The notes: generated by a model from the sequence alone, not told the origin. DNA of 64,000 nucleotides from Acidobacteriota bacterium (GCA_965205505.1 CBDBHB010000008.1:928001-992000), one strand, 5' to 3'. Positions 41,315 to 59,883 are shown, counted from the first letter of the stretch. Program-made: numbers and translations.

Positions 41315-43153
41315 TCAACTTCCTTCGAGATCCTCTGTTACCAGGGTGACGTCGTCGCTGTTGCCGGTCATTTCCCAGCGAATGAGTGACATCGGTATGT
41401 TGCCGGCCGACAGGAACTCATCGACGAAATCACGAAGCACGAATTCGTCACCGAGCTTCTGCGCCCGTTCTCTGAACAGTTTCATGAAATAAGCCTTGCC
41501 GGTAACAACGTTGCTATGAAAGCCACCCGGGTTACGCAGGTTGGACTGCATTTCAAACCAGACCATACCTTCATCTTCTTGTGACCAGCCGCGCGGCATG
41601 ATCTCGGCACACAGACGCCTCGCCTCGGCCAGGTTGATCTCGTTGGCGTGCATTTTCATGTCCGGTATCGCGAGGCTCATATGCGAGGCATTCATCAAGT
41701 ATTCCATTTCCCTGCCCTTGCGCGGCCGATCGTCGAGTACGCCAGCCTGCATCAACAACTCCTCGAGTGCTACGGCCCAACCCTCGGTGCGCATCGAGTC
41801 CATGTTGTAGCGGCGCCCGGCGCTGCGGATCGGGCTCCTGGTCAGGCGCTCCTGTCTTTGAAAATCGAGCATGTGCCCAATGAACTCGTGGGTTTCGCCG
41901 GGCAGTATCTCGCGCTGGCGGACCTTGGTGTCGATACTCGTGTTTTCGGGCAGGAACCGGTCACTGGAATCGTCACCCTCTCGGGCGAGACGCTCATCGA
42001 GCTCAGCGAGGGTCTCGAAGCCCGTGTAGTCCGCTGGGTTCACCCAATCGTCGATGGTCATGATCTCTTCGTCGCGCAAGAAATCGACGACATGATTGAG
42101 CGCGTGGTACAGGCTGGTCTCGAATTCCTTTTCGTTCGAGGCTACCTGCAGGGGCGGCAGGTTGCGATTTCGGTGTTCTTCGAGCTTCAGGAACGTGATG
42201 ATGCGATCGTATTCTCTCTGGATAATCGCGTTGTTTTCTTCCCAGCCCCACGGAGACAACTGCACGTTGCGCATCCACCAGCTGTAGTTTTCCTTGCCGA
42301 TCCCGGCCGCGGCGGTCATCTCGTGCTTGGTCGCTTCCAGCCATTCGGCATAGTCACGTACCGCCTTCCCGGCGCCGAGCGCATCGGCCGCCAGGTCCGG
42401 ATGATGTTCCTCGAGCTGCGCGGCAATTCGGACATAGGTCTCGGCTTCGCGCGCAGAGTTCCGAACCGCGAGCTCGGCGAGATCAGCGGCCGCTTCGGTA
42501 AGGTTGGTCCTCGCCTGCACGTAGATTCCGGGGATAGCCCTCAGCGCCGCCCGGTATCGTGCCTTTTCGTCCTCCGAGAAAGGGGGTCGCAGGGAAAAGA
42601 GCGCAGACCTGAGGCTCGCGGCGTTCATTGACGCCCCCGCGTCTCCCCCTCTGATCGAATAGAAACCGGGGTCACGTGCCCAAGGCTTGAGCACCCGGTG
42701 ATGGAACTCCAGGGCGTTCATTTCGGCACGAACCAAGTGATAATCGACTCTTTGCCAGACGGGCCAATCACCCGTTTCCATCGCAGCCAGGCGCTCTTGA
42801 AACTGCTTCAGGCCACGGTATTGCTCTCTAATTGCGGCAGCGCTGTAGTCGGGTACGCCGTTGTTGTTGTTGGTTGATTCCTGAAATCCACGAAACTCAT
42901 CGAACAAACCCGCAAGATCGCCATAGTTGCTGCTGGTGGTGATTCTCCCGGGAATCTGCTTGCGGGGGAGGGCAAGGAGCGACGACGAGGCGATGCTGGA
43001 GTCATCGCGGGGGAGGAGCGGCGCCGCCAGTCGTCCGTAATTCCCACTTGCCCGTAGGGTTGTGCCGCCAACCAGATCCATCACACTTTCACCACGGCCT
43101 GCTAGCAATAGCATCACGGAACAAGTCGCACAAACAACGTACCGAGTTGACAT
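41315..43153 (-). CDS. DUF885-like secreted protein
   Basis: VDYHLVRAEMNALEFHHRVLKPWARDPGFY, HEFIGH, EGWAVALEELL, IPMSLIRWEM. Confidence 0.7.
   Translation of the reverse strand: MSTRYVVCATCSVMLLLAGRGESVMDLVGGTTLRASGNYGRLAAPLLPRDDSSIASSSLLALPRKQIPGRITTSSNYGDLAGLFDEFRGFQESTNNNNGVPDYSAAAIREQYRGLKQFQERLAAMETGDWPVWQRVDYHLVRAEMNALEFHHRVLKPWARDPGFYSIRGGDAGASMNAASLRSALFSLRPPFSEDEKARYRAALRAIPGIYVQARTNLTEAAADLAELAVRNSAREAETYVRIAAQLEEHHPDLAADALGAGKAVRDYAEWLEATKHEMTAAAGIGKENYSWWMRNVQLSPWGWEENNAIIQREYDRIITFLKLEEHRNRNLPPLQVASNEKEFETSLYHALNHVVDFLRDEEIMTIDDWVNPADYTGFETLAELDERLAREGDDSSDRFLPENTSIDTKVRQREILPGETHEFIGHMLDFQRQERLTRSPIRSAGRRYNMDSMRTEGWAVALEELLMQAGVLDDRPRKGREMEYLMNASHMSLAIPDMKMHANEINLAEARRLCAEIMPRGWSQEDEGMVWFEMQSNLRNPGGFHSNVVTGKAYFMKLFRERAQKLGDEFVLRDFVDEFLSAGNIPMSLIRWEMTGNSDDVTLVTEDLEGS
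43069..43105 (-). repeat. CTAG-repeat copy translated in frame within the signal region
   Basis: CTAGCAGGCCGTGGTGAAAGTGTGATGGATCTGGTTG encodes LAGRGESVMDLV. Confidence 0.85.
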
Positions 43154-43319
43154 GCTTGCGTCTCCTTTGCTTCCTATCCGAGGAATCGGCTGAGACTCAA
43201 TGACGGATGCGGAGTGTTGTGCATACCGATTCCCGGCGGCGATTGTATCGGCTCAGCGATTCTACGATGCCGAAAACCAACGGGCCCTACCATGCCGTGG
43301 CGGATCCGGCTCAGCGTGA

Positions 43320-43448
43320 GCCTCGAGGAAGCCGCCACGATGGCCCTGTTGTACTCCAGCCCGAACTTCGCACACCAGTACTGGATCGCCTCGTGCGAGA
43401 CGGTGACACCTCGCTCCGCGAGGAGAGCTTCGACGTCTCGGAGGCTTA
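43320..43448 (-). pseudogene. IS6-family transposase N-terminal remnant
   Basis: SLRDVEALLAERGVTVSHEAIQYWCAKFG. Confidence 0.8.
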
Positions 43449-43470
43449 CAGGCCGTGGTGATCTATCGGG

Positions 43471-44715
43471 CTATTCCCCCACGATGACGAGATCTAACGG
43501 AGACTTTAGAGGCTGATACGCAGTATCCGCTTTGAACATCAGCGTATCGACGTAATAGGTGATTCCTGACATGCGGGGCGAGAAACACTGGCTCTCGAAA
43601 TTAACGACTGTCCCCGGCTCAAACATCCTCTCCGTCTCGGTATCCGTCATCACGTAGACATAATTGCCGACCCAATCGGGCGGAAAGGCAACGCCGAGCT
43701 CATACCCGCCGACCCAGGCAGCATCGGACCAAATCCCGACCTCGTCGTAGTAGGCCCTGGTCTTGGTCACGAGCTCTGCAACCGGCAGGTTGGGACGCAG
43801 CATCTCGGCGATCACGTCGAAAACACCCGTGGAACGCCGGTGATAGTCCATCACGTCCTTGGCCGGTTCTCCGACATGAAATGACCGTCCGGCATTGCAA
43901 TGATAGCGGTTGAACACACCACTGACATCGACATTGACTTGTTCACCCGCCTTGATCACCTTTCGGCTGGCCAGCGAATGGCCGCAATTGGCTTTCAGCC
44001 CTGAATTCACCGGCAACGTGATTCCGGGGTTCTCTCCGCCCGCCTTCGCCATGGCATGAGCGATCTCGCCGTACACGTCGAGCTCGGTGACACCGGCCCG
44101 GATGGCATTCTTCGCCGCCTGCAAACCGATGTCGGTGATTTTCGCGGCCTTCTCGATACAGGCGATCTCGGCTTCCGATTTGACCCAACGAATATCGCGC
44201 AAGATATCGCTACCGTCGATCACGCTCATACCAGCACTCTCGAAGGCTTCCCAGAACCGCGTGCTGATCGCGGGATTGGGCCGATAGCTATGACATTCCA
44301 TTCCGACCGTGCCAGAAGACATCCAGCCCTGGGATTTCAGTTCGTCGATAATGAATGACATGCCATCGCGACGCCCGCCCAGCGGGAACATCCGGATGTC
44401 CGTCGCGCAGGTGACGAAGCGACACATGATGCCTTCGCTGGGCGTGTCGAACAGGATGAAATCGTCGCGGTCCTTGTGAATTGCAATTCCGCTCGTCGCG
44501 GGCCATTGTTTGGGGCCTTGCGCCTGATACCAGATGCATTTGTAGCCGCTCACATAGTAAAGGCTTTCGGGGGCCATGAGCCACAACACATCAATGCCGT
44601 TGCCGTCCATACGCGCACGGATGCGCTGAAGACGATGTTGACATTCTTCCAGGCTGAACGCCGGTTCGACCTCTGGCTGGCACTCCTGAAGGGCAAGATC
44701 TCGGTTTCTTCCCAA
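43471..44715 (-). CDS. M24-fold amidine/amide hydrolase (ectoine hydrolase DoeA/EutD- or creatinase-like)
   Basis: RLQRIRARM, VKSEAEIA, GYELGVAFPPDW; typical metal ligands incomplete; AAGGAGG RBS before TTG. Confidence 0.8.
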   Translation of the reverse strand: MGRNRDLALQECQPEVEPAFSLEECQHRLQRIRARMDGNGIDVLWLMAPESLYYVSGYKCIWYQAQGPKQWPATSGIAIHKDRDDFILFDTPSEGIMCRFVTCATDIRMFPLGGRRDGMSFIIDELKSQGWMSSGTVGMECHSYRPNPAISTRFWEAFESAGMSVIDGSDILRDIRWVKSEAEIACIEKAAKITDIGLQAAKNAIRAGVTELDVYGEIAHAMAKAGGENPGITLPVNSGLKANCGHSLASRKVIKAGEQVNVDVSGVFNRYHCNAGRSFHVGEPAKDVMDYHRRSTGVFDVIAEMLRPNLPVAELVTKTRAYYDEVGIWSDAAWVGGYELGVAFPPDWVGNYVYVMTDTETERMFEPGTVVNFESQCFSPRMSGITYYVDTLMFKADTAYQPLKSPLDLVIVGE

Positions 44716-44800
44716 TTACCGCCTCCTTCACTTACATGACTTGTCGTTCGATCCGACAATTGAACCCGAACAGTGATCAGAACGACTATCGGGGTGTCCA

Positions 44801-45100
44801 ATGTATCAGATCGATCCTTTGAGAACGGACCTCGTTGAGGAGTTTCGAAATAGCCCTGGGGGCCCTTATAGTCGCGACCTCACTCTCGTTGTGAACCGGT
44901 TACGAGTAATGCCAATGGCAGATCGCCATATTCTCGTTTGCACGCAGCGCGGCCGCGAATGGATTCTGGCGAAAATGCCATCGAAACGTGGCACCGCGCT
45001 GGAACTCTTCGAAGATCATGTCTTCGACGACTACCATGAAGGCGTACGGGAGGTTTTCAAACTGCGGTGGCAAACCGTAACGGGAACCGACCTGTCATGA
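44801..45100 (+). CDS. N,N-dimethylformamidase small-subunit-like protein
   Basis: EEFRNSPGGPYSRDL..NRLR...VFKLRW; directly upstream of the large subunit. Confidence 0.75.
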   Translation: MYQIDPLRTDLVEEFRNSPGGPYSRDLTLVVNRLRVMPMADRHILVCTQRGREWILAKMPSKRGTALELFEDHVFDDYHEGVREVFKLRWQTVTGTDLS

Positions 45101-45131
45101 GCGGATTGCCAGTGGCTAAGGAGCCGACCGC

Positions 45132-47366
45132 GTGAAAACGATACTGGGATATACAAACGTATGGGGGATCGCTCCGGGAGAGACGCTCAACGTCATGGTC
45201 AGTACATACGGTCCTGAGCGCTATCGAGCCGATCTGGTTCGCATCATCTGCGGAGACGACCACCCCGACCATGATATCTATCGTGAAGAAGAACTTGATG
45301 CACCGTTCAGCGGTGAGTATCGAGGCCGGCTACAGCCGATTGACTGCGGATCATATGCAGTGGTAGCTAACTCCGTTGAACTCGCTGCGCTCGAAAGCTT
45401 CACTGTTCTGGCGTGGATATGGCCGACCACACCCCCCAAGGGAGAACAGGGTCTCATTGCGAGGTGGCAGGACGATCCAGCCCTCGGGTTTGCTCTGCTG
45501 ATCGACGACACTGGCGCGCTTGCCCTGCGCGTGGGCGACGGTGGCGGAAACGTGGCGGAGATCAGCACGGGCGAGCCGTTGGCGATGCGGCGCTGGTATC
45601 TGGTTAGCGGGTCGTATGACGCACTCACGGGCGAGCTCAACGTCTATCAAGAACCCGTTAATGTCGACCATGAACGTCACGAAGTCGCCCAGGCAACGAG
45701 TCGGGTTGAACTCGACGTTGCGGCCAACTCCGCTTCGCCGCTCATGTTTGCGGCATTACCCACGACGCTATCGACAGGGAAACCCGGATCTCAATGTCAC
45801 TACAATGGCAAGATCGACCGGCCCCGCCTGGCTGCCGGGGTATTGTCTCCGGCGGAACGTTCAGCGATGGCGCGGGATGCGCTGCCCCATGAACGAAACA
45901 CTCAAGTGATTGGCGCCTGGGACTTCTCACGTGACATTGGTGGCGGCGTAATAAGTGATGTTGGTCCTAACAGGCTTCACGGGAAGACGGTCAACCTGCC
46001 ATCACGCGGTTGCAAAGGCCATAACTGGACCGGCACGGAGCAGAATTGGGCTCACGCACCACAGGAATATGGTGCTATCCATTTCCACGACGATGACCTT
46101 TATGACGCCGGATGGGAGACCGATTTCGAATACATCGTGCCTGATGAGCTGCGAAGTGGTGTTTACGCAGTGCGTCTGACAACCGACGATGACGAATGGT
46201 ACGTTACCTTCTTCGTCCGACCAACTCGGGGTACCACCACCTCAAAACTCGCCTTCTTGGTTTCGACGGTAACCTATATGGCGTATTCCAATTATCACTG
46301 GTTATTCCATGAACGCTTTTGCGAGGTGGCCGAAACCATGTGGACCACGTTGGACAGAGGCGACGTCTTTCTGCAGGAGCACACCGAAGTCGGGTTATCG
46401 ACCTACGATACGCATTCTGACGGGAGCGGTGTGCGCTATGCATCACGATTGCGTCCCGTGCTCAATATGGCACCAAAGACCCCCTTATGGAGTTTCAATG
46501 CCGATACCCACATACTGGGTTGGTTGGAAGCTCACGGTATTGAATACGATGTGATTACCGATGAGGACCTTCACGAGGAAGGTGCCGCGCTGCTTGATGG
46601 ATACCAGGCCGTGCTGACGGGCACGCATCCTGAGTACTACACCACGCCCATGTGGGACGGGCTGCGCGCGTATCTCGCAAGAGGGGGTCGTATAGTCTAT
46701 CTCGGCGGCAATGGTTTCGTCTGGCGCTGCGCCCTTTCATCCGAAATGTCCGGCGTTGTCGAGTTGCGCCGGCCAGAAGACGGTATTCGGTACCGTGATG
46801 AAGAGCCCGGTGAATATTATCTGGAATTCACCGGAGAATACGGTGGTTTGTGGCGACGCCTCGGCATGGCACCACAGGCTTTGGTCGGCGTCGGCACGGT
46901 CGCCGCCGGGTTTGATGCTTCCGGTTGTTACAAGCGTAAGAAGGCGAGCTTTGATCCTCGAGTCAGTTTCATGTTCGAGGACATCGGTGATGATGAAGTG
47001 ATCGGAGATTTCGGTATTCGCGGCGGCGGTGCCAGTGGTTCTGAAATCGATGCTGCGGACCCGATGCTGGGAACACCATCCCATGCTCTGGTCGTTGCTA
47101 GTTCAGAAGGTCACACTGAAAATACGTATTTGGTACCAGACGAGACCGGCTTTCATCATAGTGCCATGGATGGCATTCAGAACCCACACATTCGGGCGGA
47201 CATGACGTTCTTCGAAACGCCTGGAGGCGGTGCCGTATTCTCCGTTGGATCAATCGCTTGGAGTGCGAGTCTTCCGCACAATGGTTATGAGAACAACGTA
47301 TCCCGGATTTCGGAGAATGTGGTTCGGCGCTTCCTCGATGATAAGCCCTTTGCCATGCCCGAATGA
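45132..47366 (+). CDS. N,N-dimethylformamidase large-subunit family protein
   Basis: YGAIHFHDDDLYDAGW, TYMAYSN, GLSTYDTHSDGSG, GTHPEYYT, YLGGNGF, RADMTFFETPGGGAVFSVGSI. Confidence 0.92.
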   Translation: MKTILGYTNVWGIAPGETLNVMVSTYGPERYRADLVRIICGDDHPDHDIYREEELDAPFSGEYRGRLQPIDCGSYAVVANSVELAALESFTVLAWIWPTTPPKGEQGLIARWQDDPALGFALLIDDTGALALRVGDGGGNVAEISTGEPLAMRRWYLVSGSYDALTGELNVYQEPVNVDHERHEVAQATSRVELDVAANSASPLMFAALPTTLSTGKPGSQCHYNGKIDRPRLAAGVLSPAERSAMARDALPHERNTQVIGAWDFSRDIGGGVISDVGPNRLHGKTVNLPSRGCKGHNWTGTEQNWAHAPQEYGAIHFHDDDLYDAGWETDFEYIVPDELRSGVYAVRLTTDDDEWYVTFFVRPTRGTTTSKLAFLVSTVTYMAYSNYHWLFHERFCEVAETMWTTLDRGDVFLQEHTEVGLSTYDTHSDGSGVRYASRLRPVLNMAPKTPLWSFNADTHILGWLEAHGIEYDVITDEDLHEEGAALLDGYQAVLTGTHPEYYTTPMWDGLRAYLARGGRIVYLGGNGFVWRCALSSEMSGVVELRRPEDGIRYRDEEPGEYYLEFTGEYGGLWRRLGMAPQALVGVGTVAAGFDASGCYKRKKASFDPRVSFMFEDIGDDEVIGDFGIRGGGASGSEIDAADPMLGTPSHALVVASSEGHTENTYLVPDETGFHHSAMDGIQNPHIRADMTFFETPGGGAVFSVGSIAWSASLPHNGYENNVSRISENVVRRFLDDKPFAMPE

Positions 47367-47446
47367 CATGATGGCTCTGCGACGGTCAAGTAGGTGGATG
47401 GGCAAATAGGTGGATGGGCAACCAGCGGACCGACCGGTCTGGGAGG

Positions 47447-48271: not shown

Positions 48272-48698
48272 GCCTACCTCCGGAGTTGTGAGCCAGTCGT
48301 GTGCTACCGGGAATGGTCCGCAGACTACCGGCTTCAGAGGTCCCGGTGGTGGCGTCAGCGCAAGACATCTGTGTGGTGGCCGTGAGGAAGATGTCAGGAA
48401 AGCGTCAGAAGCCGGATTCGAAACTGGGGGACCTCCGGGAGGCGACGTCGCGCCCCATCCCTACTCTTGGCCGGGCACTCGTTCGGTCTCTTGGCCGGTC
48501 GCTCGTTCAGCCGTTCCGCCAAAAGGCAGAGCGCGGCACGATATCCAAAAGGCCCCGAATCCCAGCAACGACACGGTCCGCGCCGCGAGTCGGCCGACGT
48601 ACGGCACGCTCGAGATCAGCGTCAGCAGGATCACGCCGATCATCAGTGGCAGGAACCGCGCCGCTGTCCCGCTCAGCTCGGCGTCTCCTAGCAGGCCG

Positions 48699-48720
48699 TT
48701 GAAAGTGAACTTCAAGTCAA
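48699..48720 (-). promoter_or_regulatory. SoxR/MerR-type operator dyad with divergent -35
   Basis: Imperfect dyad TTGAAAGTGAACTTCAA abutting TTGACT on the minus strand, just upstream of the soxR-like gene. Confidence 0.55.
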
Positions 48721-48730
48721 GAGGGTTTCG

Positions 48731-49223: not shown

Positions 49224-51194
49224 GTGGCACGCTTCGTACAGTTCCTCGCTATTTGTCTTTTGGTGAGCCTTGTTGCCGGGGCGCTGCCGGCAGCAACAAC
49301 ACCGTTACCACTACCGTCCCAAGACGAATGGCGCTACTTCGGTGGTGACAAGGGTTTCACACGCTACTCCCCGCACGATCAAATCCACCGCGACAACGTT
49401 AACGATTTGCGGATCGCCTGGCGTCGCCCGGCGGTGCGCGACGAACTTACAGAGGCGTTTCCTGATCTGTACCCCGATGCCTACCTGAGGGCGACGCCGA
49501 TCATGATCGACGGCGTGCTCTACACGCAGGATGCCCACGGTTTGGTAATCGCCCTCGATGGCGAGACCGGCGAGACCCTATGGGAACAGGAGCTCGTTGT
49601 GTCGACACTGGAAGAGGCCGACGCGTCGAGCACTCGTGGTGTTGATCACTGGAGCAGTGGCACCGGCGATGAGCGCATCCTCGCCATCCGAGGTGAGTAT
49701 CTCTACGCGCTCAATACCAGGACCGGCGAGCCTTACGCTGGTTTTGGCGATGACGGCAGGGTCAGCCTGCGGTTCCATGAGCGTCAGCCCTTGGCCCGTG
49801 CATTCAGCGACAGCACGGGTCCTCTCGTGGTGGGCAACGTCGTCGTGGTCACCGGGATCACGGGCGGAGCCGGCGATGGCGGTAACAAGAAGGAATCGGC
49901 GCCGGAGGATGTACGCGGCTTCGATGCTCAAACGGGCCGGTTGCTGTGGACGTTCCATCCGGTGCCGCGGGCGGGCGAGTTCGGCGCCGACACTTGGGGC
50001 GACGATTCTTGGAAGGTAGCAGGCGACCTCGGCGCCTGGGCTCTGATGACCGCGGACGAAGAGCTCGGTTATGTCTATATCGCGCTGTCAGCGCCGACGT
50101 CTGCTTGGTATGGCGGCTGGCGACCCGGTGACAATCTGTTCTCGAACACCTTGGTCGCTCTGGACGTGAAGACCGGCGAGCGCGTGTGGCACTTCCAGAT
50201 GATTCACCACGACCTCTGGGAATACGACAACATCGGTCCCGCGATACTCGGCGACATCACTGTCGACGGCAAGCGCATCAAGGCGGTGATGCAGCCGAAC
50301 AAGAATGCGTTTCTATTCGTCCTCGACCGTACCAACGGCGAGCCGGTGTGGCCGATCGAAGAGCGCCCGGTACCACGGTCGACGGTGCCCGGCGAGGAGT
50401 CCTCGCCGACGCAGCCGTTTCCGACCAAGCCGCCGCCCTTCGACCAACAGGGGATGACCGACAGCGACTTGATCGACTACACACCGGAGCTCAAGCAACG
50501 GGCGCGCGAGCTCGTCAAGGACTATCAACTCGGTCCGCTCTATACCCCACCGTCCGTGCCGAGCGATGAGCCGGGTGGAACGAAGGGGACGATCGTATAT
50601 CCGGGAGCGTGGGGCAACGGAAACTGGAACACCGGAGCCTTTGATCCCGAAACAGGAATCTACTACGCGGTCTCAAACACCTCGTATGGTCCGACAAACC
50701 GCGCTGTGGTCAAACAAACCGACCCGGAAGCGACGATGGAATATGCCTATGTCCCCAGCGCCCGACTCGAGCTCGACGGGCTCTTCTTCAACAAGGGGCC
50801 GTACGGCCGGATCACAGCCCTCGATCTCAACCGAGGCGAGCAGCTGTGGATGACCGCCAACGGCGATGGGCCACGCAACCATCCGTTGCTGAAGGATCTC
50901 AACCTACCGCCGCTGGGGAGTCCCAACCGTCCGGCTCCACTTGTCACCAAGACCCTGTTGTTCCTCGGCGAAGGCAGCAACGCCGTGAGCGGAACGCTGA
51001 ACGAGGACTGGGCATGGGGCAAGAAATTCCGTGCCTATGACAAGGCCACGGGTGATGTGATTTGGGAGATCGAGCTGCCGTCGGGGACCACCGCCGGCCC
51101 GATGACCTACATGCTCGACGGAAAACAGTACATCGTGGTGTCAATCGGAGCGCAGGATCACCCGGCGGAGTACGTCGCACTGGCGCTTCCATAG
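49224..51194 (+). CDS. PQQ-dependent (glucose dehydrogenase-like) quinoprotein
   Basis: WRYFGGD..RYSP..QI...NV, DNLFSNTLVALD, HHDLWEYD, PVWPIEERPVP, SPTQPFP, PMTYMLDGKQY. Confidence 0.9.
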   Translation: MARFVQFLAICLLVSLVAGALPAATTPLPLPSQDEWRYFGGDKGFTRYSPHDQIHRDNVNDLRIAWRRPAVRDELTEAFPDLYPDAYLRATPIMIDGVLYTQDAHGLVIALDGETGETLWEQELVVSTLEEADASSTRGVDHWSSGTGDERILAIRGEYLYALNTRTGEPYAGFGDDGRVSLRFHERQPLARAFSDSTGPLVVGNVVVVTGITGGAGDGGNKKESAPEDVRGFDAQTGRLLWTFHPVPRAGEFGADTWGDDSWKVAGDLGAWALMTADEELGYVYIALSAPTSAWYGGWRPGDNLFSNTLVALDVKTGERVWHFQMIHHDLWEYDNIGPAILGDITVDGKRIKAVMQPNKNAFLFVLDRTNGEPVWPIEERPVPRSTVPGEESSPTQPFPTKPPPFDQQGMTDSDLIDYTPELKQRARELVKDYQLGPLYTPPSVPSDEPGGTKGTIVYPGAWGNGNWNTGAFDPETGIYYAVSNTSYGPTNRAVVKQTDPEATMEYAYVPSARLELDGLFFNKGPYGRITALDLNRGEQLWMTANGDGPRNHPLLKDLNLPPLGSPNRPAPLVTKTLLFLGEGSNAVSGTLNEDWAWGKKFRAYDKATGDVIWEIELPSGTTAGPMTYMLDGKQYIVVSIGAQDHPAEYVALALP

Positions 51195-51198: not shown

Positions 51199-52536
51199 GT
51201 GCGGAAGAGCTCTGGTGGATCTGGTTACGGCGTCGCGGGGCCAATCGTCTTGCTGCTGCTGGCTGTTTCTCTCGCTCTCGCGGCAGTGGCCGGGCTAGTG
51301 GCCCAATCGCCCACTGAGGCGGCGTCCTGGCGGCAGTGGGGCGGGCCGCACCGGAACTTCATCTCCGACGCGACGAGCCTTGCCGACTCATGGCCCCCGG
51401 GAGGCCCCAGAGAAGTCTGGAGTCGACCGCTCGGCCTGGGCCATTCGACGATCGTCGTCGACGGCGCCCATCTCTACACCATGTACCGGCCGCACCTCGA
51501 GGAAGCACGGCCCAACCAATGGGCCGGCGAGGAGCTCGTCATCGCGCTAGAGGCCGCCACCGGAGAGACGATCTGGGAGTACCCCTACGGCGCTCAGCCC
51601 TTGAACTTCAGATTCGGGGCGGGGCCGCACGCGACGCCGCTCATCGTCGGCGATCGGCTGTTCACCTCAGGCACGAACAAGCAGATCCACGCCTTCGACA
51701 AGCGGACCGGCGAAGTTCTTTGGTCGCACGATCTCGTCGCCGAGTACGATGCGCCGCCGACGTTGATCCGGCCGGCCGTAACGGCTGGCTACGCCTCCAG
51801 CCCCCTGGCGTACAACAACACGGTGATCGTGACCGCCGGGGGCGACGGCCAGTCGGTGATGGCCTTCAACCAGAGCGACGGTTCGCTGGTCTGGAAGAAC
51901 GGTGACTTCCTGGTCGCGCCGTCTTCGCCGATCCTGATCGAGCTCGAGGACGAGACCCAGCTCGTTGTGGTGGGAGGCCGGACGGTCAACGGGCTGAACC
52001 CGGACACCGGTGAGATCCTCTGGAGCCATCCGCACGACACCAACGGCGACATGAACAACACGACGGCGGTGTGGGGACAGGACAACGTGTTGTTCGTGTC
52101 ATCGGCCTACAACGGGGGCAGCCGCGGCATGCGTTTGTCCAAAGCGGGCGACGACACGGAGGTCGACGAGCTCTGGTTTACTCGCGACATGCAGATCATG
52201 TTCGGTAGCACGATTCGGTTGGGTGACTTCATCTACGGAAGCAGCGGCGGTTTCGGACCGGCATTCATCACGGCGCTCGACCTGCGAACGGGCACCGCGG
52301 CGTGGCGCGAGCGAGGCTTCTCCCGGTCGCACTTTCTCTACGCCGATGGCAAGGCGATCATCCTCGACGAGGACGGCAACCTGGCGCTCACGGAAGTTTC
52401 GCCGGAGGGCCTGACGGTCATCTCGACGGCTGAGGTGCTGACCGGTACGTCGTGGACAGCGCCGACCCTCGTCAGCACGACCCTCTACCTGCGAGACCGG
52501 CAAACGATCAAGGCGCTGGATATCGGGAAGCGTTGA
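51199..52536 (+). CDS. PQQ-binding-like beta-propeller protein
   Basis: WRQWGGPHRN, ATGETIW, GPHATP, YASSP, SWTAP..LYLRD. Confidence 0.88.
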   Translation: MRKSSGGSGYGVAGPIVLLLLAVSLALAAVAGLVAQSPTEAASWRQWGGPHRNFISDATSLADSWPPGGPREVWSRPLGLGHSTIVVDGAHLYTMYRPHLEEARPNQWAGEELVIALEAATGETIWEYPYGAQPLNFRFGAGPHATPLIVGDRLFTSGTNKQIHAFDKRTGEVLWSHDLVAEYDAPPTLIRPAVTAGYASSPLAYNNTVIVTAGGDGQSVMAFNQSDGSLVWKNGDFLVAPSSPILIELEDETQLVVVGGRTVNGLNPDTGEILWSHPHDTNGDMNNTTAVWGQDNVLFVSSAYNGGSRGMRLSKAGDDTEVDELWFTRDMQIMFGSTIRLGDFIYGSSGGFGPAFITALDLRTGTAAWRERGFSRSHFLYADGKAIILDEDGNLALTEVSPEGLTVISTAEVLTGTSWTAPTLVSTTLYLRDRQTIKALDIGKR

Positions 52537-52564
52537 GCCCGGACCCTCCACGATATCTCTGCAA

Positions 52565-53539
52565 CTACCGCAGGTTCGGCGACCAAGACGGGAATCGGTC
52601 ATTGCCCGGACTACTCGTCAGTCTCGTCTGATCAGAGCCATCTATTCGCATGCTGTAAACGTCCCAATGCCCATGCCTGTTGGTTTCAAATACGATCTTC
52701 GAGCCATCCGGCGACCATCGGGCGTGGCGATCTTCGTAGGCGGGTTGTCTTTCCACGGAATATAGGGGTGTGGACAACTTCTTCTCATTGGTCCCAGTGG
52801 AATCCATCACAGAGATGCTCATGCGATTCTAATCGAAAAGTATCAGCGCGCCGTCCGGTGACCATGATGGAAATCCGTTGGCATCGGAGTTATCGGTCAA
52901 TCTCACCAGATTCGTGCCGTCCAGGTCGATCACGAAAATGTCAACGTCGCCGCCCAGGTGCGGATCCGTGTCAGATTCGATGATGACTCGAGACCCATCA
53001 GGTGACCAGACAGGAACTTTTGCGTTGATGACACTGTCGGTTATTCTCCGCTGGTTGGATCCGTCGAGGTTCATGACATATGCCTCAACGTGTCCATCGC
53101 GGCCTGTACTAAAGGCGATTCGAGAACCGTCGGGGGCCCAACTCGGGAAATTGTCATCGTAGCTATTAGAGGTCAGTCTTCGTTGGCTCGAACCGTCCAT
53201 ATTCATCAGGTAAATTTCCCAGTTTCCGTCCCTTTCAGATTCGAACGCGAGCATTGAACCGTCCGGCGACCAGGAAGGATGGCGATCTGCGGCGGGATTG
53301 TCTGTGATCCTTCTCTGAGTCGATCCATCGGTGCTCATCACGTAGATTTCCCAGTTTCCGTCCCTATCAGAATCAAATGCGATCATCGATTTTTCATCGT
53401 AGGCGTTTTCAGTACGGGATATCATGTGGAATCTCGTGTCGTCGCAGGGGTCATGTTCAGTCTCTGCGCCGGCTGCAATTACAAGAAGCGACAAGACTAT
53501 CGAAAGCTGTACCTTCATCGACATTGTCCTCGCTTTCAT
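52565..53539 (-). CDS. TolB-like PD40-repeat protein, one frameshift near 52830
   Basis: Repeated PSWSPDG / [12 protein letters not shown] units continue across two frames. Confidence 0.85.
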
Positions 53540-53748
53540 ATCGTTGCCGACCTCAGCAACCCTGATTGGAATGCGGGTCGTTTATCCAACATCCGGTGCA
53601 ACAGGTTGCACGATCGCGCGTTGCCAGAACCGTTTCTGGAACTGCCAATCGGATCGCGATTCTGCCGTCGAATCGGTCGGATGACAACCACCCCTGCCCC
53701 ACTCTGGGGTGGCTTCCCGAGCCGTCGGCACGAACCCGTCTCGGACGG

Positions 53749-54594
53749 ATGAACAAGCGCACCTTCGGCCCCACGGGCTTGGACGTTCCAGTCATCGGGC
53801 AGGGCACCTGGGAGATGGAGCTGTGCGATCGTGCCGCGGCGAGCCGGGCGCTGCACCGCGGCCTCGATCTGGGCGCGACGCACATCGACACCGCTGAGAT
53901 GTACGGCAACGGGGCGGTCGAGAAGCTCGTAGGTGAGGCGATAAGGGATCGGCGCGACGGGGTCTATCTGGTTAGCAAGGTGCTGCCGTCGAACGCGTCG
54001 CGGGCCGGGACGATCGCTGCGTGTGAGCGGTCGCTGCGGCGTCTGCGCACCGATCGGCTCGATTGCTATCTGTTGCACTGGGAAGGAAGTTATCCGCTCG
54101 CGGAGACGGTCGCCGGGTTCGAGCAACTGCTCGCCGACGGCAAGATCCGCGCCTGGGGCGTGAGCAACTTCGACGAGGCCGCCATGGCCGAGGTCGTTAC
54201 GATCGCTGGCGCCGAGAGCATCGCCTGCAACCAGGTCTGCTACTACCTGCAGGAGCGCGCTATCGAGCATGCAGTGATACCGTTTTGTGAGCGACACGGG
54301 ATCGCGGTGGTCGCGTACAGCCCGTTCGGCTCGGGCTCATTTCCTCCCGCGCGCTCTCCGGGCGGCCAGCTGCTTGCGGAGATCGGCGCGAACCGCGAGG
54401 CTAGCCCCTTCCAGATCGCGCTGGCGTTTCTTTGCCGGCGCCGGGCGCAGTTCGCGATTCCGAAGAGCTCGACCGTCGCTCACGTCGAAGACAACGCCGC
54501 CGCCGGTGATCTCGCCCTTACCGACGCGGAAATCGAGCGGATCGATGCGGCCTTCCCGCTCGGCCGGCCGCGGGGCGGGATTCCGATGATCTGA
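53749..54594 (+). CDS. Aldo/keto reductase
   Basis: IGQGTW, IDTAEMYG, LVSKV, YLLHW, GVSNF, AYSP, AIPKS. Confidence 0.93.
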   Translation: MNKRTFGPTGLDVPVIGQGTWEMELCDRAAASRALHRGLDLGATHIDTAEMYGNGAVEKLVGEAIRDRRDGVYLVSKVLPSNASRAGTIAACERSLRRLRTDRLDCYLLHWEGSYPLAETVAGFEQLLADGKIRAWGVSNFDEAAMAEVVTIAGAESIACNQVCYYLQERAIEHAVIPFCERHGIAVVAYSPFGSGSFPPARSPGGQLLAEIGANREASPFQIALAFLCRRRAQFAIPKSSTVAHVEDNAAAGDLALTDAEIERIDAAFPLGRPRGGIPMI

Positions 54595-54631
54595 GAGCAG
54601 TTTCAGTGAGCTCCGACGGGCTTCCAGCGCT

Positions 54632-55903
54632 TTGAGCGAGAAACTCTCCCGAAGCCTTACTTTCATCGGACTCCTCGGCTTCGGCTTCAACATCATGATC
54701 GGCTCCGGCATGTTCTTCCTGCCGGGCAGGGCGATGGCCATCATGGGGCCGGCCTCGATACTCGCTGGAGTGGCAGCACTCTCGATCGCGGCATTGCTGG
54801 TTTTCTGTTTCGCCGAGCTCAGCAGCCAGTTCACCCAGACCGGTGGACCGATTCTCTACACCCACGCGACGCTGGGGCCAGCAGCCGCGTTTGGCGTGGG
54901 TTGGCTGGGCTACCTATCCCGAGTTTCTTCGAACGCGGCGCTCGTCGTGATCTTTGCAACGTCCGCGGTGACGGCGTTTCCAACGCTCAGCGGCCTGGAG
55001 TCCGTCCTGATCGCGGCATTCGTGGCGCTGCTGCTGGTCATCAACCTTCGCAACGTGGCGTTCAACGCCAGGGTCATGGACATCGTTCTCGTGCTGAAGG
55101 TCATCCCGTTGCTGGCGTTCATCGGCTGGGGGGCTTTCCATATCCAGCCGGAGAACTTCACGCCCTTCGCACCTGACGGCGTGACGAGGCTTGGCGAAGC
55201 CACGCTGGTTATTTTCTACGCCATTGTCGGCTTCGAAATGATGACGGTCGTCGCAGGTGAGGCACAGGACCCGCAGCGGAATGTACCCAGAACGCTGTTC
55301 GTCGTTGTCCTGACGAGCGGCGCGTTGCTGTTTTCGCTGTTCGTCGTCCTGATCGGCGCCTTCCCGGAGGCCGCACTTTCTGACAGCCCCGTTGCCGACG
55401 CGGCCCTGTCGATCATGGGCCCTGCCGGCCGTCTCATCGGCGTCGGCATCCTGCTATCGGTGATCGGGGTCAATCTGAGCTGCGCTCTGGCAACACCGCG
55501 CTACCTGTATGCGATGTCCCTCGAGGGGTCCCTGCCGCGCGTGTTCGCGCGGGTGTCGTTGGGCGGACAAGTGCCCTATGTTGCCGTGCTCTTGAGCAGT
55601 GGCCTGACGTACGTTCTGACGATCGGTAACAGCTACGTAGCTCTGGCCGTGCTCTCGGTCATCGCCCGGATCGTCCAGTACATGGCGAGCTGCGTTGCGT
55701 TGCTGATCCTTCGATCCCATCAGGAGCCACAGGAGCCAGGCGAGGTTCGATTCCGTGCGCCGGCCGGCCGTTTCGTGGCCGCTGCCGCACTGCTCGTTTG
55801 TGTTTGGCTTCTCTCGTCTGCTACCAGCAGCCAACTGCTGTGGACAGCGGTCGCATTGCTCGCCGGCTATGTTCTCTACTATGCCAACAAGGCACTCGCG
55901 TAG
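54632..55903 (+). CDS. APC family amino acid/polyamine permease
   Basis: IGSGMF, FAELSSQF..TGG, YAIVGFE, AGEAQDPQRNVP; multiple TM segments. Confidence 0.92.
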   Translation: MSEKLSRSLTFIGLLGFGFNIMIGSGMFFLPGRAMAIMGPASILAGVAALSIAALLVFCFAELSSQFTQTGGPILYTHATLGPAAAFGVGWLGYLSRVSSNAALVVIFATSAVTAFPTLSGLESVLIAAFVALLLVINLRNVAFNARVMDIVLVLKVIPLLAFIGWGAFHIQPENFTPFAPDGVTRLGEATLVIFYAIVGFEMMTVVAGEAQDPQRNVPRTLFVVVLTSGALLFSLFVVLIGAFPEAALSDSPVADAALSIMGPAGRLIGVGILLSVIGVNLSCALATPRYLYAMSLEGSLPRVFARVSLGGQVPYVAVLLSSGLTYVLTIGNSYVALAVLSVIARIVQYMASCVALLILRSHQEPQEPGEVRFRAPAGRFVAAAALLVCVWLLSSATSSQLLWTAVALLAGYVLYYANKALA

Positions 55904-55928
55904 CCGCAATAGGCCGGCACCCTTGCTG

Positions 55929-56513
55929 TCAGTCACGCAAGTTGATCTTGGCGCTCTCCGGTTGTTCCTGTACACGATCCAGCAGTTCGTAGCCACCTTG
56001 CATCGCTTCCTGGTCTCCGTTCGGGGCCCAGTCTGCCCAAACGACAACCGCCTTTTCTTCCGAAATGATTTCGAGGCTATGTACTGCGTTCGGTCTCATG
56101 TAGACGGTCGAGCCAGGTGTGGCGATGAATTCCTCCCCGTCGACATTCCATCTCGCGCTACCTGAGATGAAGTAATACAGCTCTGGGCACGGATGTCGGT
56201 GTGAGGGATAGATTGCACCCGGACCCAGCTCGCCAACACCAAAACCTATGTCGCGGTCCGGCAAGGCCTCGCCGAATCGGCCACCTGTACCAATGAGCGT
56301 CTTCCAGCGCATGACTTCCAGCATCCGCCGCATTTCCTGTGCCCGCTCCCTGAACTCTTCCGGAATACTCGCCGCATCTGCGGCGACCAGTTCGGGCCAC
56401 GGAACATCATGTTCGTTCAGGTGAACTGCCGATTCGAGATCGTCAACGACCTGGCCAGACAACGGCATAACCACCAACAGGGCAACTACGAATCCGGAAA
56501 TGAACCTAAGCAT
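55929..56513 (-). CDS. Secreted cupin resembling DddK/DddW-type DMSP lyases
   Basis: Signal peptide; RWKTLI...GVGELGPGAIYPSHRHPCPELYY..SG...VYMRPNAVH. Confidence 0.75.
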   Translation of the reverse strand: MLRFISGFVVALLVVMPLSGQVVDDLESAVHLNEHDVPWPELVAADAASIPEEFRERAQEMRRMLEVMRWKTLIGTGGRFGEALPDRDIGFGVGELGPGAIYPSHRHPCPELYYFISGSARWNVDGEEFIATPGSTVYMRPNAVHSLEIISEEKAVVVWADWAPNGDQEAMQGGYELLDRVQEQPESAKINLRD

Positions 56514-56665
56514 GACCTGCTCCTTTGGCGAAACTCTTTCGGTCGGGACATTCTAATTCAGTACAAGATGTTGACAATCAAACGGCGGACGCGAGGTCGA
56601 CGGGCAACACGTAAGCCATCGGATGCCTCGACGGCGCCCTCAACATGGGGGGCGGTGCGGTCCGC

Positions 56666-57298
56666 TCAGAGTCCGAGCAGGTAACGGAAGCCGATCTCGA
56701 GACGGCTACCGGGGTTGCGCGCGGTGGCCAGCTGAAGCGGCGTGCTCAGCGGATCGCGCCACAGTGCCCAGACTCGAGTCTCTCCGTTTAGGTGGCTGGT
56801 GAGAGCATACACGCGTCCCACCTCCTGCAGACCGCCGACACTACGGGTCTTGCCGTAACGAAACTCGAGCTCGAGGAACTTCACCGCGCGCTCGTTGTGG
56901 ATCCAGGGCCACGCCGGGGGCCACGGTATTCCCAACAGCGCCGCGTAGACCCGCGTCGTCGAGCCCGATACGGAATCGTGGTTCTCGCTGGCCTCGGCTG
57001 CGAGCTGGGGGACGTTGCGATCGGCGTCCGTGTCCAGCACGCCGAAGAGGAAGGCGCGGTTGCCCAGGCGAAAGCGGATGCGGCCGCTCGAAGCCTCATC
57101 CGAGGTGCGGGCCACCAGGTCCAGATCCACGAGCTGGATGCCGCCGCAGGCCCCCGGGCTGCATGGCATTGGCAGATGATCCACCGGATAGTCGATCTGT
57201 TCTTGGCCGCTCGTAGTGACCTGCGGCGGCTGTTGGGCACAGACCCCGGTGGGCCAGATCGTGACTACCGCCACCGTGATCAGTAGCCCGTTGTTCAT
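56666..57298 (-). CDS. Secreted hypothetical protein
   Basis: Signal-like N-terminus; start overlaps the upstream gene stop; beta-strand-like C-terminus RLEIGFRY. Confidence 0.6.
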   Translation of the reverse strand: MNNGLLITVAVVTIWPTGVCAQQPPQVTTSGQEQIDYPVDHLPMPCSPGACGGIQLVDLDLVARTSDEASSGRIRFRLGNRAFLFGVLDTDADRNVPQLAAEASENHDSVSGSTTRVYAALLGIPWPPAWPWIHNERAVKFLELEFRYGKTRSVGGLQEVGRVYALTSHLNGETRVWALWRDPLSTPLQLATARNPGSRLEIGFRYLLGL

Positions 57299-58449
57299 AG
57301 CGCCGCCCGCGCCGAGTCGAGCACGCGCTGGTCATCGTCGGTCGGAAAGTAGCGGGTGATGTCGGGCACGAGTTGCTCGTACGGCAATGTCACCGCACCG
57401 CCGGCAGCGGCTCGCACCCGGCTCAGGAGGTGCTCGTACAGATCGACGGACTCTATTGAGGAGGCGAAATCGGACTCGATGGATTCAATGCGGATGAGAC
57501 GAAAGTCGTCGGGCTCGAGGTCGAACAGTACGAAGTGATAGATGCGCTCGGCGGTCGCAATCTCCGCACGCATGCGAGCATTGCTGTCGGTGAACCAGGG
57601 CAGGTGGTTGGCTGTGCCGCGCGCGCCGGTCTCGGTGATCCAGACCGGCTTGTCGGTCATGCTGCCCAGCAGCTCGATCGCACGCTCGTCATATACGTGC
57701 ATCGCAACGACGTCGCAATGCTCTTCCAGCCCCGCCTCGATCATCTGCCGCAGCCTGAAGATGCCGTCACGTCCGCCGACGGGGGCAGCGGCCACGACGC
57801 GGAGGTCGGGACGCCGCGCCTTCAGGTCGCGGTAGGTAGGTGCGAGGAACAGCCGGACGTAGTCCTCGGGCCGCAGGCCGAGGAAATTGCCGGGCTCGTT
57901 GAGCACCTGAAAAGCCACGCTGCTGAGCTCGCCGGCGCGCCGGCGGGCAGGTGACACCTCGCCGGCGAACAGCGTCAGGTAGGTGTCGACAACCAGGGCG
58001 CGTTGCCGCGGGCGTCTCAGGGCGCGGGTCAGATCGTGCCCGCTACCGAACTGACCGAGGATTGCCAGCACGTCGACGCCGAGAGCACGTGCGGAGCGGA
58101 CATAGGGGATCGCGCCGACGAGGTCGGCGCCGAAGCCGTTGAACGAGACCGTCGTACGGATGGACTCGAACCCCAGCTCGTAAACCTCGCGCATCTGCAG
58201 ATCGACGAGCCGGGGAACGATCAGCGGCGGGCTGAAGTCTGAGACCTGATCGAAGCGTCGCACCGGCTGCAAGTTGAGCCCGCCGTTGACCCGTGGGACC
58301 ACGATGTGACGGCCACGGCGCCGCTGTTCGGTTCGCACTCGCCGCAGACTCAGCGCCAGACCGGCAGCCACGAATCGACGGCGACTGAACACGCGCTCCA
58401 CCTCCCGTTCCCGTGCCTGATCGACGACGACATCCAGGCTGGCGCCCAA
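57295..58449 (-). CDS. Clan GH-A glycoside hydrolase-like protein, possible Tat signal
   Basis: FQVLNEP acid/base and KPVWITETG nucleophile motifs, DVVAMHVY; SRRRFVAAG near the start. Confidence 0.75.
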   Translation of the reverse strand: MGASLDVVVDQAREREVERVFSRRRFVAAGLALSLRRVRTEQRRRGRHIVVPRVNGGLNLQPVRRFDQVSDFSPPLIVPRLVDLQMREVYELGFESIRTTVSFNGFGADLVGAIPYVRSARALGVDVLAILGQFGSGHDLTRALRRPRQRALVVDTYLTLFAGEVSPARRRAGELSSVAFQVLNEPGNFLGLRPEDYVRLFLAPTYRDLKARRPDLRVVAAAPVGGRDGIFRLRQMIEAGLEEHCDVVAMHVYDERAIELLGSMTDKPVWITETGARGTANHLPWFTDSNARMRAEIATAERIYHFVLFDLEPDDFRLIRIESIESDFASSIESVDLYEHLLSRVRAAAGGAVTLPYEQLVPDITRYFPTDDDQRVLDSARAAL

Positions 58450-58452
58450 GTT

Positions 58453-59883
58453 TCAGCGGATGAGCCGTATTCCGGGGTCCGGCGGATAAGGGAACTCGAC
58501 GCCGTCTTCCGTCACTACCGCACCGTCATGGAAGGCGATGTAAATGTGCTTGCCCCTCCCCCACGCAGGTACTGGCATGTGGATCATGTACTCGAACGTG
58601 AAGGTGTGCAGCACCGGGATCGTCATCTCGCGTTCCCAGTCGGAGCCGAGCGGAGAAATCCTCGGAGCAACCAAGCCGCTTCGTCCCACGGCGTGCACAT
58701 CCAGATGCACCTGCGTCTTGTGAGGGTCGGCCGTCGAGTCGTATTGGTCGACCGGATTGTAGTGGTAGCCCGCCTCTTCGATCTTCCGGATCAGCAGGTC
58801 GAGGGTCTCCCCTGCCGTGCGCCCGGCAACGATGTTGTCGAGTAGCATCTGGCGGGTCTCGAGCGCAACTCGCCAGATCTCTTCGATCTCCGGCGGTGCT
58901 TCCGTCTCGCCCTCGCGCAGCAAGTAGGCGTTGCCCCCGAGGTCCGACGAGAAGATCCGGTTGCCGGCGCCGTGAAGAATCGTGAAGACGTCGCCCGGCT
59001 GCAGGACATAAGGCTGCGGATCTCCAGTGTGGAACTCGACGCCGTCAGGATCGCGGCGGAAAACGTTGCCCTCCAGGTCGCGGAGCTCGGTTACTCCCGG
59101 CACGACTTTGCCGAACTCGCGGTCGAGGTTGTCGGCAGCGATCAACCCGAACTGGCGATAAAGCTCGATCTCCTCGGCAACGCGACCCGCCAGGTAGTCG
59201 ATGATCAGGTGCTCGGCGGAGACCACGCGCCCGGCGTAGGTGTCGCCTAGCGCCTGCATCAAAAGGCCGTAGTCGGTGTGGGAGAGCCCGTCGGTCAGCG
59301 GGGCACGTTCCGACGCGGCCGAAAGCCCCAAATCCTCCGAGTAGTTGACGCCGATGCGGCGTGGGTCGCGTTCGGCCACGAATTCCCCCACACGGTCGAA
59401 GCGAAATTCCAGATGGTCGGTCTCATCGCCGCCGGGCTGCTCGGTGATCACACCGTCGACGAAGGTGGGCAGCTCCACGAGCGGCCGAGCGATGACGTCA
59501 TAGGCGTCTGCGTCGTCGACGTGTCCGGCGAACAGGGCCCGCTCTATTCGATCGGCTCCGCGGTCGGTGAAGACGAAGATCCCCGCGTCGCTCCCGAGCT
59601 CGAAGCTCAGCGGGTCGGGTGCCCACGGCCGCATGACATGAATCCACATGTCGATCTCGTTTTCCCGCATGATGCGCGGCAGAACCTGATCGAACTTGCT
59701 GTGGCGCACCTGGTTCTCAAGCGCCACCGAATCATCGGGCAGCACGGTGGAGGGATTCACCGTTTCGGGGTTCTGCGCCCTTGGCGGCGCAACCAGACCC
59801 ATCACACTTTCACCACGGCCTGCCAGCAGTGCCAAGAGAACGAAACAGCAAGCGGTGAGCTTCGAGAGTACGCCCATGGACAT
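58453..59883 (-). CDS. Secreted M24-fold protein
   Basis: VLPRIMRENEIDMWIH, LQPGD, SDLGGNAYLLREGETEAP, DVHAVG, FTFEY, FHDGAVV. Confidence 0.78.
   Translation of the reverse strand: MSMGVLSKLTACCFVLLALLAGRGESVMGLVAPPRAQNPETVNPSTVLPDDSVALENQVRHSKFDQVLPRIMRENEIDMWIHVMRPWAPDPLSFELGSDAGIFVFTDRGADRIERALFAGHVDDADAYDVIARPLVELPTFVDGVITEQPGGDETDHLEFRFDRVGEFVAERDPRRIGVNYSEDLGLSAASERAPLTDGLSHTDYGLLMQALGDTYAGRVVSAEHLIIDYLAGRVAEEIELYRQFGLIAADNLDREFGKVVPGVTELRDLEGNVFRRDPDGVEFHTGDPQPYVLQPGDVFTILHGAGNRIFSSDLGGNAYLLREGETEAPPEIEEIWRVALETRQMLLDNIVAGRTAGETLDLLIRKIEEAGYHYNPVDQYDSTADPHKTQVHLDVHAVGRSGLVAPRISPLGSDWEREMTIPVLHTFTFEYMIHMPVPAWGRGKHIYIAFHDGAVVTEDGVEFPYPPDPGIRLIR
59785..59826 (-). repeat. CTAG-repeat copy translated in frame within the signal peptide
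   Basis: CTGGCAGGCCGTGGTGAAAGTGTGATGGGTCTGGTTGCGCCG encodes LAGRGESVMGLVAP. Confidence 0.85.

Follow-up and report, generated by a model that had tools for sequence, protein, structure and literature searches.

Terminal inverted repeats of a CTAG-associated miniature element within the signal peptides of two unrelated acidobacterial proteins: probable scars of insertion

How might two otherwise unrelated secreted proteins come to carry the same short peptide at the same place, directly after the hydrophobic stretch with which each begins? The question is raised by a stretch of 64,000 nucleotides (nt; here, 'the window') from an Acidobacteriota bacterium (GCA_965205505.1 CBDBHB010000008.1:928001-992000), in which P0001, a secreted protein of the DUF885 family, and P0002, a secreted protein of M24 fold (i.e., prolidase- or creatinase-like), have LAGRGESVM(D/G)LV in common. 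A first-pass annotation had offered two explanations, the one being a tolerated scar of insertion at Leu-Ala codons (CTA GCA) and the other being 'grafting', that is, the fusing of a resident start codon and hydrophobic region onto newly acquired cargo. The repeat in question belongs to a miniature inverted-repeat transposable element (MITE), and what the two genes carry is very probably a tolerated and nearly neutral MITE scar, located within signal peptides that were already resident there.

Both open reading frames (ORFs) are, as first described, long and uninterrupted, P0001 consisting of 612 amino acids (aa) and P0002 of 476 aa, and their translations place the block where it had been reported to be. 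P0001 begins MSTRYVVCATCSVMLL-LAGRGESVMDLV-GG, with AAGGAG found 8 nt upstream of its ATG, and P0002 begins MSMGVLSKLTACCFVLLAL-LAGRGESVMGLV-APPRAQ. As read by eye, the n-region and the hydrophobic h-region involve R4 followed by YVVCATCSVMLLLA in P0001 and K8 followed by LTACCFVLLALLA in P0002; orthologous signal peptides end in ..A↓Q (arrows here marking cleavage or insertion points), and the structural model of P0002 places a helix at residues 3-20. A promoter and terminator scan of positions 42800-43500 detected nothing. The DUF885 label for P0001 holds up well (Pfam PF05960, E 6e-24, 86 bits versus a 32.4-bit cut-off, with the match starting from residue 97). The M24 label for P0002 is fair: Its match to Pfam Peptidase_M24, at 20.8 bits, is under the 23-bit cut-off, and PDB supplied no sequence match, but an AlphaFold model built from a 7-row alignment, with a mean predicted local distance difference test score (pLDDT) of 66.5, was matched by Foldseek to X-Pro aminopeptidases, prolidases, creatinase and EutD (E 7.5e-13), though with TM-scores of only 0.42-0.56. 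A paralogous M24-fold gene, also within the window, indeed lacks the repeat, possessing instead the signal peptide MQARLVLALIAFMLGVGLPAGA↓QEQ with a GGAGG ribosome-binding site in front. At the level of DNA, a 25-nt core of the block is identical between P0001 and P0002, with four copies found in the window at three or fewer mismatches versus zero expected (100 shuffles).

What the two genes share is a terminal inverted repeat (TIR), of approximately 35 nt, that belongs to a MITE family, i.e., to a non-autonomous DNA transposon. Over the genome as a whole (G000; 5.98 Mb in 9 contigs) a 21-nt core of this repeat is present in 343 copies at four or fewer mismatches, 120 of them exact. An inverted partner is found within 420 nt for 166 of these copies, with the other 177 existing as 'solo' ends. 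The paired elements mainly are 273 nt in length, with a second class of 147-183 nt, and the TIR arms, as seen in the window, span 31-35 nt and are 94-100% complementary. CTA is found directly 5' of 257 of the 343 copies, hence a duplication of TA inside of CTAG, and TAG is found directly 3' of 126 of the 166 partner ends. The TA duplication is backed as well by unoccupied sites, as seen in two related genomes (G001 for P0001, and G004 for an outer-membrane protein that is considered below). These elements thus display the traits of MITEs, being small, numerous (343 copies) and without a transposase ORF inside. The sub-family designated here as MITE-B, the source of both gene copies, ends in ..GTGATGGGTCTGGTTACGCCGCCAAGGGCGCAGA.. 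and carries as its signature a GTG-ATG-G variant of the TIR that is seen in 23 of the 343 copies. On folding, its consensus, built from 8 copies, gives a long hairpin (z-score -13.6, -189 kcal/mol). Rfam returned only sub-threshold matches for the MITE, to plant microRNA-precursor families, which are themselves long hairpins.

The family is not peculiar to this one genome. The 21-nt core is found in 20 of 41 related genomes, representing two families of one acidobacterial order, with 329 copies in G004, 140 in G008, 126 in G003, 110 in G007 and 105 in G012; the reversed pattern, searched for as a control, gave zero in every genome. CTAG itself is 3.4-fold under-represented in G000 (5853 observed versus 19712 expected from base composition), and 519 of these sites (256 + 263, or about 9% of all of them) adjoin a TIR. 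No description of this MITE family was found in full-text searches of papers for MITEs in signal peptides or in Acidobacteria.

Are these signal peptides, then, resident to their genes, or were they supplied by way of the element? Grafting would have involved recombination at the repeat joining a resident start and h-region to an acquired enzyme, making that enzyme exportable, and what recommends the idea is that the same element sequence lies at the boundary between h-region and cargo in two unrelated proteins, with no clean second TIR at the inner junction of either gene but instead a joint made by deletion or fusion. Orthologues, however, speak strongly against it. Those of P0002, at 84-94% identity, include five (G004, G007, G001, G013 and G005) that share its start context and hydrophobic core yet continue, without the repeat, straight into QNPETVNP, e.g., MSMTVLSKLAACCFVLLAL-PARA↓QNPETV in G007 and MSMTLLSKAAACCFVLAAL-AVGA↓QNPETV in G004, while a sixth (G012) has a shorter n-region and the same core. 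Orthologues of P0001, at 73-78% identity, start MSTRSVCQLALSLVLLGG in G003, preceded by GAGGAGACGCGC-ATG, and MPTRYALGTFLALFLLLGARS in G001, with the GGAGAC..ATG context of P0001 common to both. In the latter genome, furthermore, the DNA reads ..CTG TTG CTA GGA.. versus ..CTA TTG CTA↓GCAGGCC.. in G000, i.e., there is an unoccupied CTAG at the exact point of insertion. For P0001 and P0002 alike, a single ancestral gene accounts for the start, the ribosome-binding site, the h-region and also the mature domain, so that the element arrived later, and no grafting is called for. Grafting as an explanation is highly improbable, with the mature parts that had been supposed to be new cargo proving to be orthologous to the same repeat-free genes that supply the N-terminal parts. 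It is the tolerated scar that is favored by these comparisons, which show the signal peptides of P0001 and P0002 to be ancestral.

The homology to the element is not limited to the 12-aa block, as had been supposed, but instead extends over approximately 167 nt in P0001 and 52 nt in P0002 (Table 1). The segment in P0001 begins with an intact left TIR and reaches as far as the inner portion of the right one, but is missing the 90-nt central hairpin, and short copies of 174-185 nt occur elsewhere in the genome. The outer approximately 20 nt of the right TIR has been lost along with host linker, resulting in in-frame fusion to host sequence reading ..SSNYGDLAGLF. Thus replaced by element sequence is what in P0001 orthologues is a variable linker, of 10 to approximately 48 residues. 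In P0002 the net insertion is of 39 nt, and the last 9 nt of the element match (GGGCGCAGA) are present as well in the host sequence of orthologues, just after the point of insertion, constituting microhomology at the inner junction. A deletion between GGGCGCAGA as found in the element and its host twin would yield the P0002 joint exactly. The proposed CTA GCA insertion site stands for P0001 only, for which CTA is Leu17, since the P0002 junction instead reads CTG GCA.

A history that would account for both remnants is as follows. In each gene a MITE-B copy would have inserted into a CTA-G (Leu-Ala/Gly) site where the hydrophobic core of an ancestral Sec signal peptide ends, with the whole element breaking the frame. 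A deletion of its inner or right side would then have restored an open frame into the mature protein, leaving 43-52 nt in P0002 and, in P0001, about 167 nt in place of the linker between signal peptide and domain. Located within the c-region or linker, i.e., the most change-tolerant part of a secreted protein, such remnants could persist as nearly neutral scars. That a complete MITE-B would be disruptive follows from its length, 273 nt plus a 2-nt duplication not being a multiple of three, and from a stop which is encountered 35 codons into the open frame. As the full element is both out of frame and stop-bearing, survivors consequently are forms that were reopened by secondary deletion. The order, of insertion and then deletion, is a presumed one.

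Nor is it a matter of independent coincidence that P0001 and P0002 employ the same frame, because the TIR can be read through in no other. Of the frames entering the TIR from outside, one encounters the TAG of CTAG and another a TGA within GGTGAAAG, which leaves as the sole open forward frame CTA GCA GGC CGT GGT GAA AGT GTG. With two forward frames closed by stops, any surviving copy that is read through in the forward direction therefore encodes (L)AGRGESV. CTAG within coding DNA, moreover, fits only as CTA-Gnn or as nCT-AGn, and signal peptides rich in Leu and Ala commonly contain the first of these.

A more prosaic explanation would be that of assembly artefact, i.e., a repeat-induced misjoin placing the element inside of these ORFs. 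The stretch is present in public runs of 11 studies, and four of these runs, from four studies and none a possible source run, were compared. Contigs of two of the short-read runs, X3 and X4, do break exactly at the TIR, as an artefact might predict, but these ends I read as de Bruijn-graph breaks at a repeat rather than as absence. Contigs of run X2, on the other hand, span 42600-43722 and 52491-60100 and thereby bridge both junctions, while a contig of run X7, spanning 59419-60100, bridges the junction in P0002, with both runs from studies other than that of the likely source run. The earlier concern that reads might fail to span the junctions is answered by these contigs, and P0004, the equivalent of P0001 from a second strain, displays the same architecture on other contigs. 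The chance of a misjoin accordingly is close to nil. An insert-free allele was not seen in any of the four runs.

If P0001 and P0002 bear scars of a MITE then other genes might as well, and indeed in-frame cases exist elsewhere in the genome. In the forward frame, 49 of the 343 copies have at least 100 open codons downstream, most being elements that are upstream of the true start. Three are preceded by both a start and a hydrophobic stretch, these being the copies in P0001, P0002 and, on contig C9, a GWxTD-domain protein (TIGR04514, E 5e-29) that reads ..GLLVMGAGVATAS-AGRGERVVGLV-AGSPHTQQ, i.e., with the TIR following the h-region. No close orthologue with an intact N-terminus was found for comparison with the GWxTD protein. 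A G004 orthologue that is 95% identical (L032; C7:218943-220595) has an unrelated long ORF joined to it at residue 184, for an open frame of 1620 aa, as a result of rearrangement or of misassembly in that genome. In reverse orientation, 29 of 30 listed copies are upstream of a real start, with one found within a gene, that for the lipoprotein-like P0005 (L118; C9:1487648-1489279). There a right-end MITE remnant of 42-44 nt is in frame within the n-region, between Met-Lys and the h-region with its lipobox. The protein reads MK-LAVTRPATLPPRPA-RATLYSLPIAVVATLFALAC behind GGAGG-N5-ATG, whereas its paralogues begin MKRxVATVIFxLxAVAAC.

Among paired copies, 33 of the 166 are stop-free in the forward frame, 12 of which have a length that when increased by two is divisible by three, with two of these found in coding sequence. 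One is carried by a Phenol_MetA_deg-family outer-membrane protein (L109; C7:375563-376585), where a whole element, of 166+2 nt, contributes 56 codons in frame. Residues 176-230 have no counterpart in orthologues from G004, G003 and G002, which run on uninterrupted across this point, and the empty site reads GCC CTA CTG in G004 versus CTA-(166 nt)-TAG in G000, with the element located in a loop. The other is in the FGGY kinase P0006 (L127; C7:540720-542378), in which a whole element of 157+2 nt, or 53 codons, is found between a TTG start candidate and the AYLAVDLG motif. Its sole orthologue has instead a leader of 22-33 residues, and in-frame ATGs inside of the element could serve as start. At the other end of genes, nine candidate C-terminal tails read into TIRs, though for at least one of them this is the outer-membrane-protein locus read in the wrong frame. 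At locus L114 in G010 a MITE is traversed by a long open frame, which was set aside because its GC pattern is non-coding. In all, there are six in-frame cases, four of them located in signal peptides and five within the first approximately 80 codons. Extra residues are least harmful in loops, in signal peptides and at termini, and I read this distribution as one of survivorship.

A number of points nevertheless weigh against seeing simple scars of a mobile element in P0001 and P0002, some of them having to do with the element and some with the census. A full-length allele was seen in none of the four metagenome runs. No autonomous element with the same TIR was found, TIR pairs that are 600-6000 nt apart instead enclosing ordinary genes, with this search for long pairs covering G000 and with DDE_3 ends examined for 6 copies in G000 and 30 loci from G004 and G007. 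Those six G000 copies, which are of the IS630 family (DDE_3), do sit in CTAG, but their TIRs differ, starting TAGTATAGCG.. and TAGTGTCCTGAG.. and showing no resemblance to that of the MITE. The IS630-family copies examined in G007 have other TIRs too, and are inserted in CTAGs at MITE ends. The in-frame census employed ORF length and third-position GC as its filter, rather than gene calls, with candidates judged by eye, and for the GWxTD protein and P0005 the comparison is with paralogues only. With regard to mobilization, it thus is the target site only which points to an IS630/Tc1-mariner type. Tenzen and Ohtsubo in 1991 reportedly described, going by their title, a preference for TA within 5'-CTAG-3'. 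Duplication of TA within CTAG, TIRs of approximately 25-35 nt and internally deleted derivatives that retain their ends are shared by the present family with IS630/Tc1-mariner elements and the MITEs that they mobilize, while differing here are the failure to find a transposase gene flanked by this TIR and the dissimilar TIRs of resident IS630 copies. For IS630/Tc1-mariner elements a target duplication of TA is on record (PMC2170065).

Further points on the same side of the ledger have to do with translation and export. Use of the upstream start and continued export are, for P0001 and P0002 alike, presumed from what their genes look like. Two RNA-labelled runs contained a 0.05 fraction of the sampled words. 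Both gene copies carry the minority GTG-ATG-G variant, with its in-frame ATG found 7 nt after GGTGA, such that an internal start is conceivable. The ancestral cleavage motif of P0002, PRA↓Q, now is 13 residues further from the h-region, so that cleavage may have been shifted or lost, with ALLA↓G, by eye and by the -3/-1 rule, a possible new site.

It might be supposed accordingly that translation begins at the ATG inside of the TIR, or downstream of it, with the h-region an untranslated relic and the proteins either cytoplasmic or decaying. Besides the rarity of the variant that both copies share (23 of 343) and the GGTGA 7 nt upstream of its ATG, it is relevant that a match in frame to the upstream ATG is weak counter-evidence, such a match having about a one-in-two chance per gene since CTAG fits two coding frames. 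The ATG variant, however, is also the signature of the MITE-B sub-family. Signal peptides, furthermore, are found in all orthologues as well as in the paralogue, with loss of export probably inactivating these enzymes, and P0002 displays, relative to its G004 orthologue, a ratio of nonsynonymous to synonymous substitution rates (dN/dS) of 0.153 over 463 codons, and therefore is a working gene that is under purifying selection. The upstream start of P0001 retains a strong and conserved AAGGAG, and the upstream ORF is intact both in the second strain (P0004) and in independent contigs. With P0005, lastly, the remnant is located between the sole start that has a ribosome-binding site and an h-region bearing a lipobox, and so there must be translated. 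Internal initiation is improbable, given these considerations, and translation from the upstream start through a scar is the preferred reading.

Might the remnants instead have been co-opted, for example by providing a new c-region or site of cleavage, by acting as a pro-peptide or a tether, or by converting a cleavable signal into an anchor? That four of the six in-frame cases in the genome fall within signal peptides, and that the frame is retained in two strains, can be viewed as favoring this. Orthologues, however, function without the segment. P0004 is identical to P0001 at 605 of 612 residues, and three of the seven differences fall within element-derived residues 17-76 (Fisher p 0.024), that is, the segment is changing faster than is the remainder of the protein (three of seven differences within 60 of 612 residues). 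The segments also vary in length, in orientation and in position, whether n-region, c-region or linker, with no common function apparent. A search with the P0001 segment of a 5.8-billion-protein set, among proteins of 336-1071 aa, matched only its own cluster, of 13 member sequences, so it is not shared by other long proteins outside of that cluster. In the model of P0002, the insertion falls within coil (residues 21-51, pLDDT of 25-47) that separates the signal helix (3-20) from the first domain helix (52-74). The element segment thus looks like a spacer under relaxed constraint, with nothing indicating a function of the peptide itself, and co-option is unlikely. Equally doubtful, if more far-reaching, is the notion that a CTAG-targeting MITE repeatedly rewrites the N-termini of exported proteins in this acidobacterial order, its target being supplied by Leu-Ala-rich signal-peptide DNA in the single frame that is open through the TIR, with remnants altering how those proteins are handled, whether by a shifted or lost signal-peptidase site, by a tethered or pro-form, or by a second, cytoplasmic isoform via the MITE-B ATG. 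If true, then the element would be a recurrent source of export and localization variants rather than of neutral scars.

Scars, as these most likely are, have precedents. Rickettsia palindromic elements (RPEs), reportedly described originally by Ogata et al. in 2000, as related by a review, are one. For RPEs and others, MITE-like repeats fused in frame to ORFs of the host are described (PMC10969869). Like RPEs, the present elements are small, hairpin-forming, non-autonomous repeats found in frame and stop-free in unrelated ORFs, where they encode a conserved peptide at tolerated positions. As expected of RPE-like insertions, they are absent from orthologues, in frame and without stops, and within a gene that is under purifying selection. 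They differ in belonging to another phylum, in being unrelated in sequence and in possessing clear TIRs with a TA/CTAG target. RPEs, in addition, are whole elements in surface loops, whereas here mostly truncated, N-terminal remnants are seen, and coding copies here are a small minority, about six among 343 TIR copies.

The enterobacterial repeat RU-2 is a second precedent, found within the predicted signal peptide of a putative exported protein. In both cases a MITE-like repeat is translated within an N-terminal signal sequence, with homologues possessing signals without the repeat. RU-2, though, supplies hydrophobic residues of the predicted signal, and the signals of its homologues are unrelated, while in the present case an ancestral h-region has the repeat inserted either after it (c-region or linker) or, for P0005, before it (n-region). 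The scars of P0001 and P0002 consequently are of a kind that is already described in other bacteria, and represent no new mechanism for making proteins exportable. They do provide a natural example of where proteins tolerate foreign sequence, and to annotators a reminder that when unrelated secreted proteins share an identical N-terminal peptide, it can be the end of a transposon and not a sorting motif. Documented as well is a MITE family whose TIR is unusually conserved and which occurs in two families within one acidobacterial order.

Table 1. Positions, within the window, of the two genes, of their element-derived segments and of related features
Feature	Position	Strand	Basis or remark
P0001, DUF885-family secreted protein, 612 aa	41315..43153	-	start ATG 43153-43151
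MITE-B-derived segment in P0001, codons 18 to ~73	42936..43102	-	alignment to 8-copy consensus; MAFFT
CTA (Leu17), left half of CTAG target	43103..43105	-	empty CTAG in G001
P0002, secreted M24-fold (prolidase/creatinase-like) protein, 476 aa	58453..59883	-	
Net 39-nt (13-codon) insertion, c-region of P0002 signal peptide	59789..59827	-	versus five orthologues and paralogue
MITE-B left-end match in P0002, TIR plus ~30 nt, 52 nt	59772..59823	-	
Paralogous M24-fold gene without repeat	39912..41300	-	own signal peptide
Solo TIR copy, intergenic	33279..33312	+	~40 nt upstream of RidA-like gene (ATG 33351, GGAGGG in front)
Solo TIR copy, intergenic	34616..34654	-	perfect 31-nt inverted pair with 33282-33312
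Diverged fifth TIR copy	942..980	-	TAG of its CTAG is the alanine racemase stop codon

Other TIR copies are present in the window as well. The two solo copies flank one gene with three RidA/L-PSP domains (33351-34565), in a composite-like arrangement. This pair (33285-34649) was considered as an autonomous element and rejected, as it encloses the RidA-like gene and no transposase. The diverged fifth copy lies directly on the stop codon of an alanine racemase gene (975-2282, minus strand; Pfam Ala_racemase_N and Ala_racemase_C). With CTAG as target, TAG stop codons as well as Leu-Ala codons consequently are hit.

A further element, of approximately 275 nt and at 17601-17875, has inverted ends of 32 nt that are 94% complementary and that are like the TIR of an IS630-family copy, L025/L026 (..CTAGTGTCCTGAGTCAGAA..). 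Probably it represents a second MITE family, one for which an autonomous relative can be identified. Also present, in the first third of the window, are long repeats, both direct and inverted and of 76-89% identity (10029-10328/17876-18175, 11144-11250/18979-19085, 12102-12249/21285-21432 and 8650-8756/11907-12013), which may be paralogous genes or another mobile region, and GC falls to 0.52 at 8001-10000. As summed over the four metagenome runs, contig depth at 50192-50775 and at 53112-53695 is 10-100 times that of neighbouring bins. These high-depth bins fall in a gene for a dehydrogenase that is pyrroloquinoline quinone (PQQ)-dependent (49224-51194) and in PD40 beta-propeller repeats (52829-53539), and, these being conserved genes, the excess therefore is from the sequence of other organisms rather than reflecting copy number.

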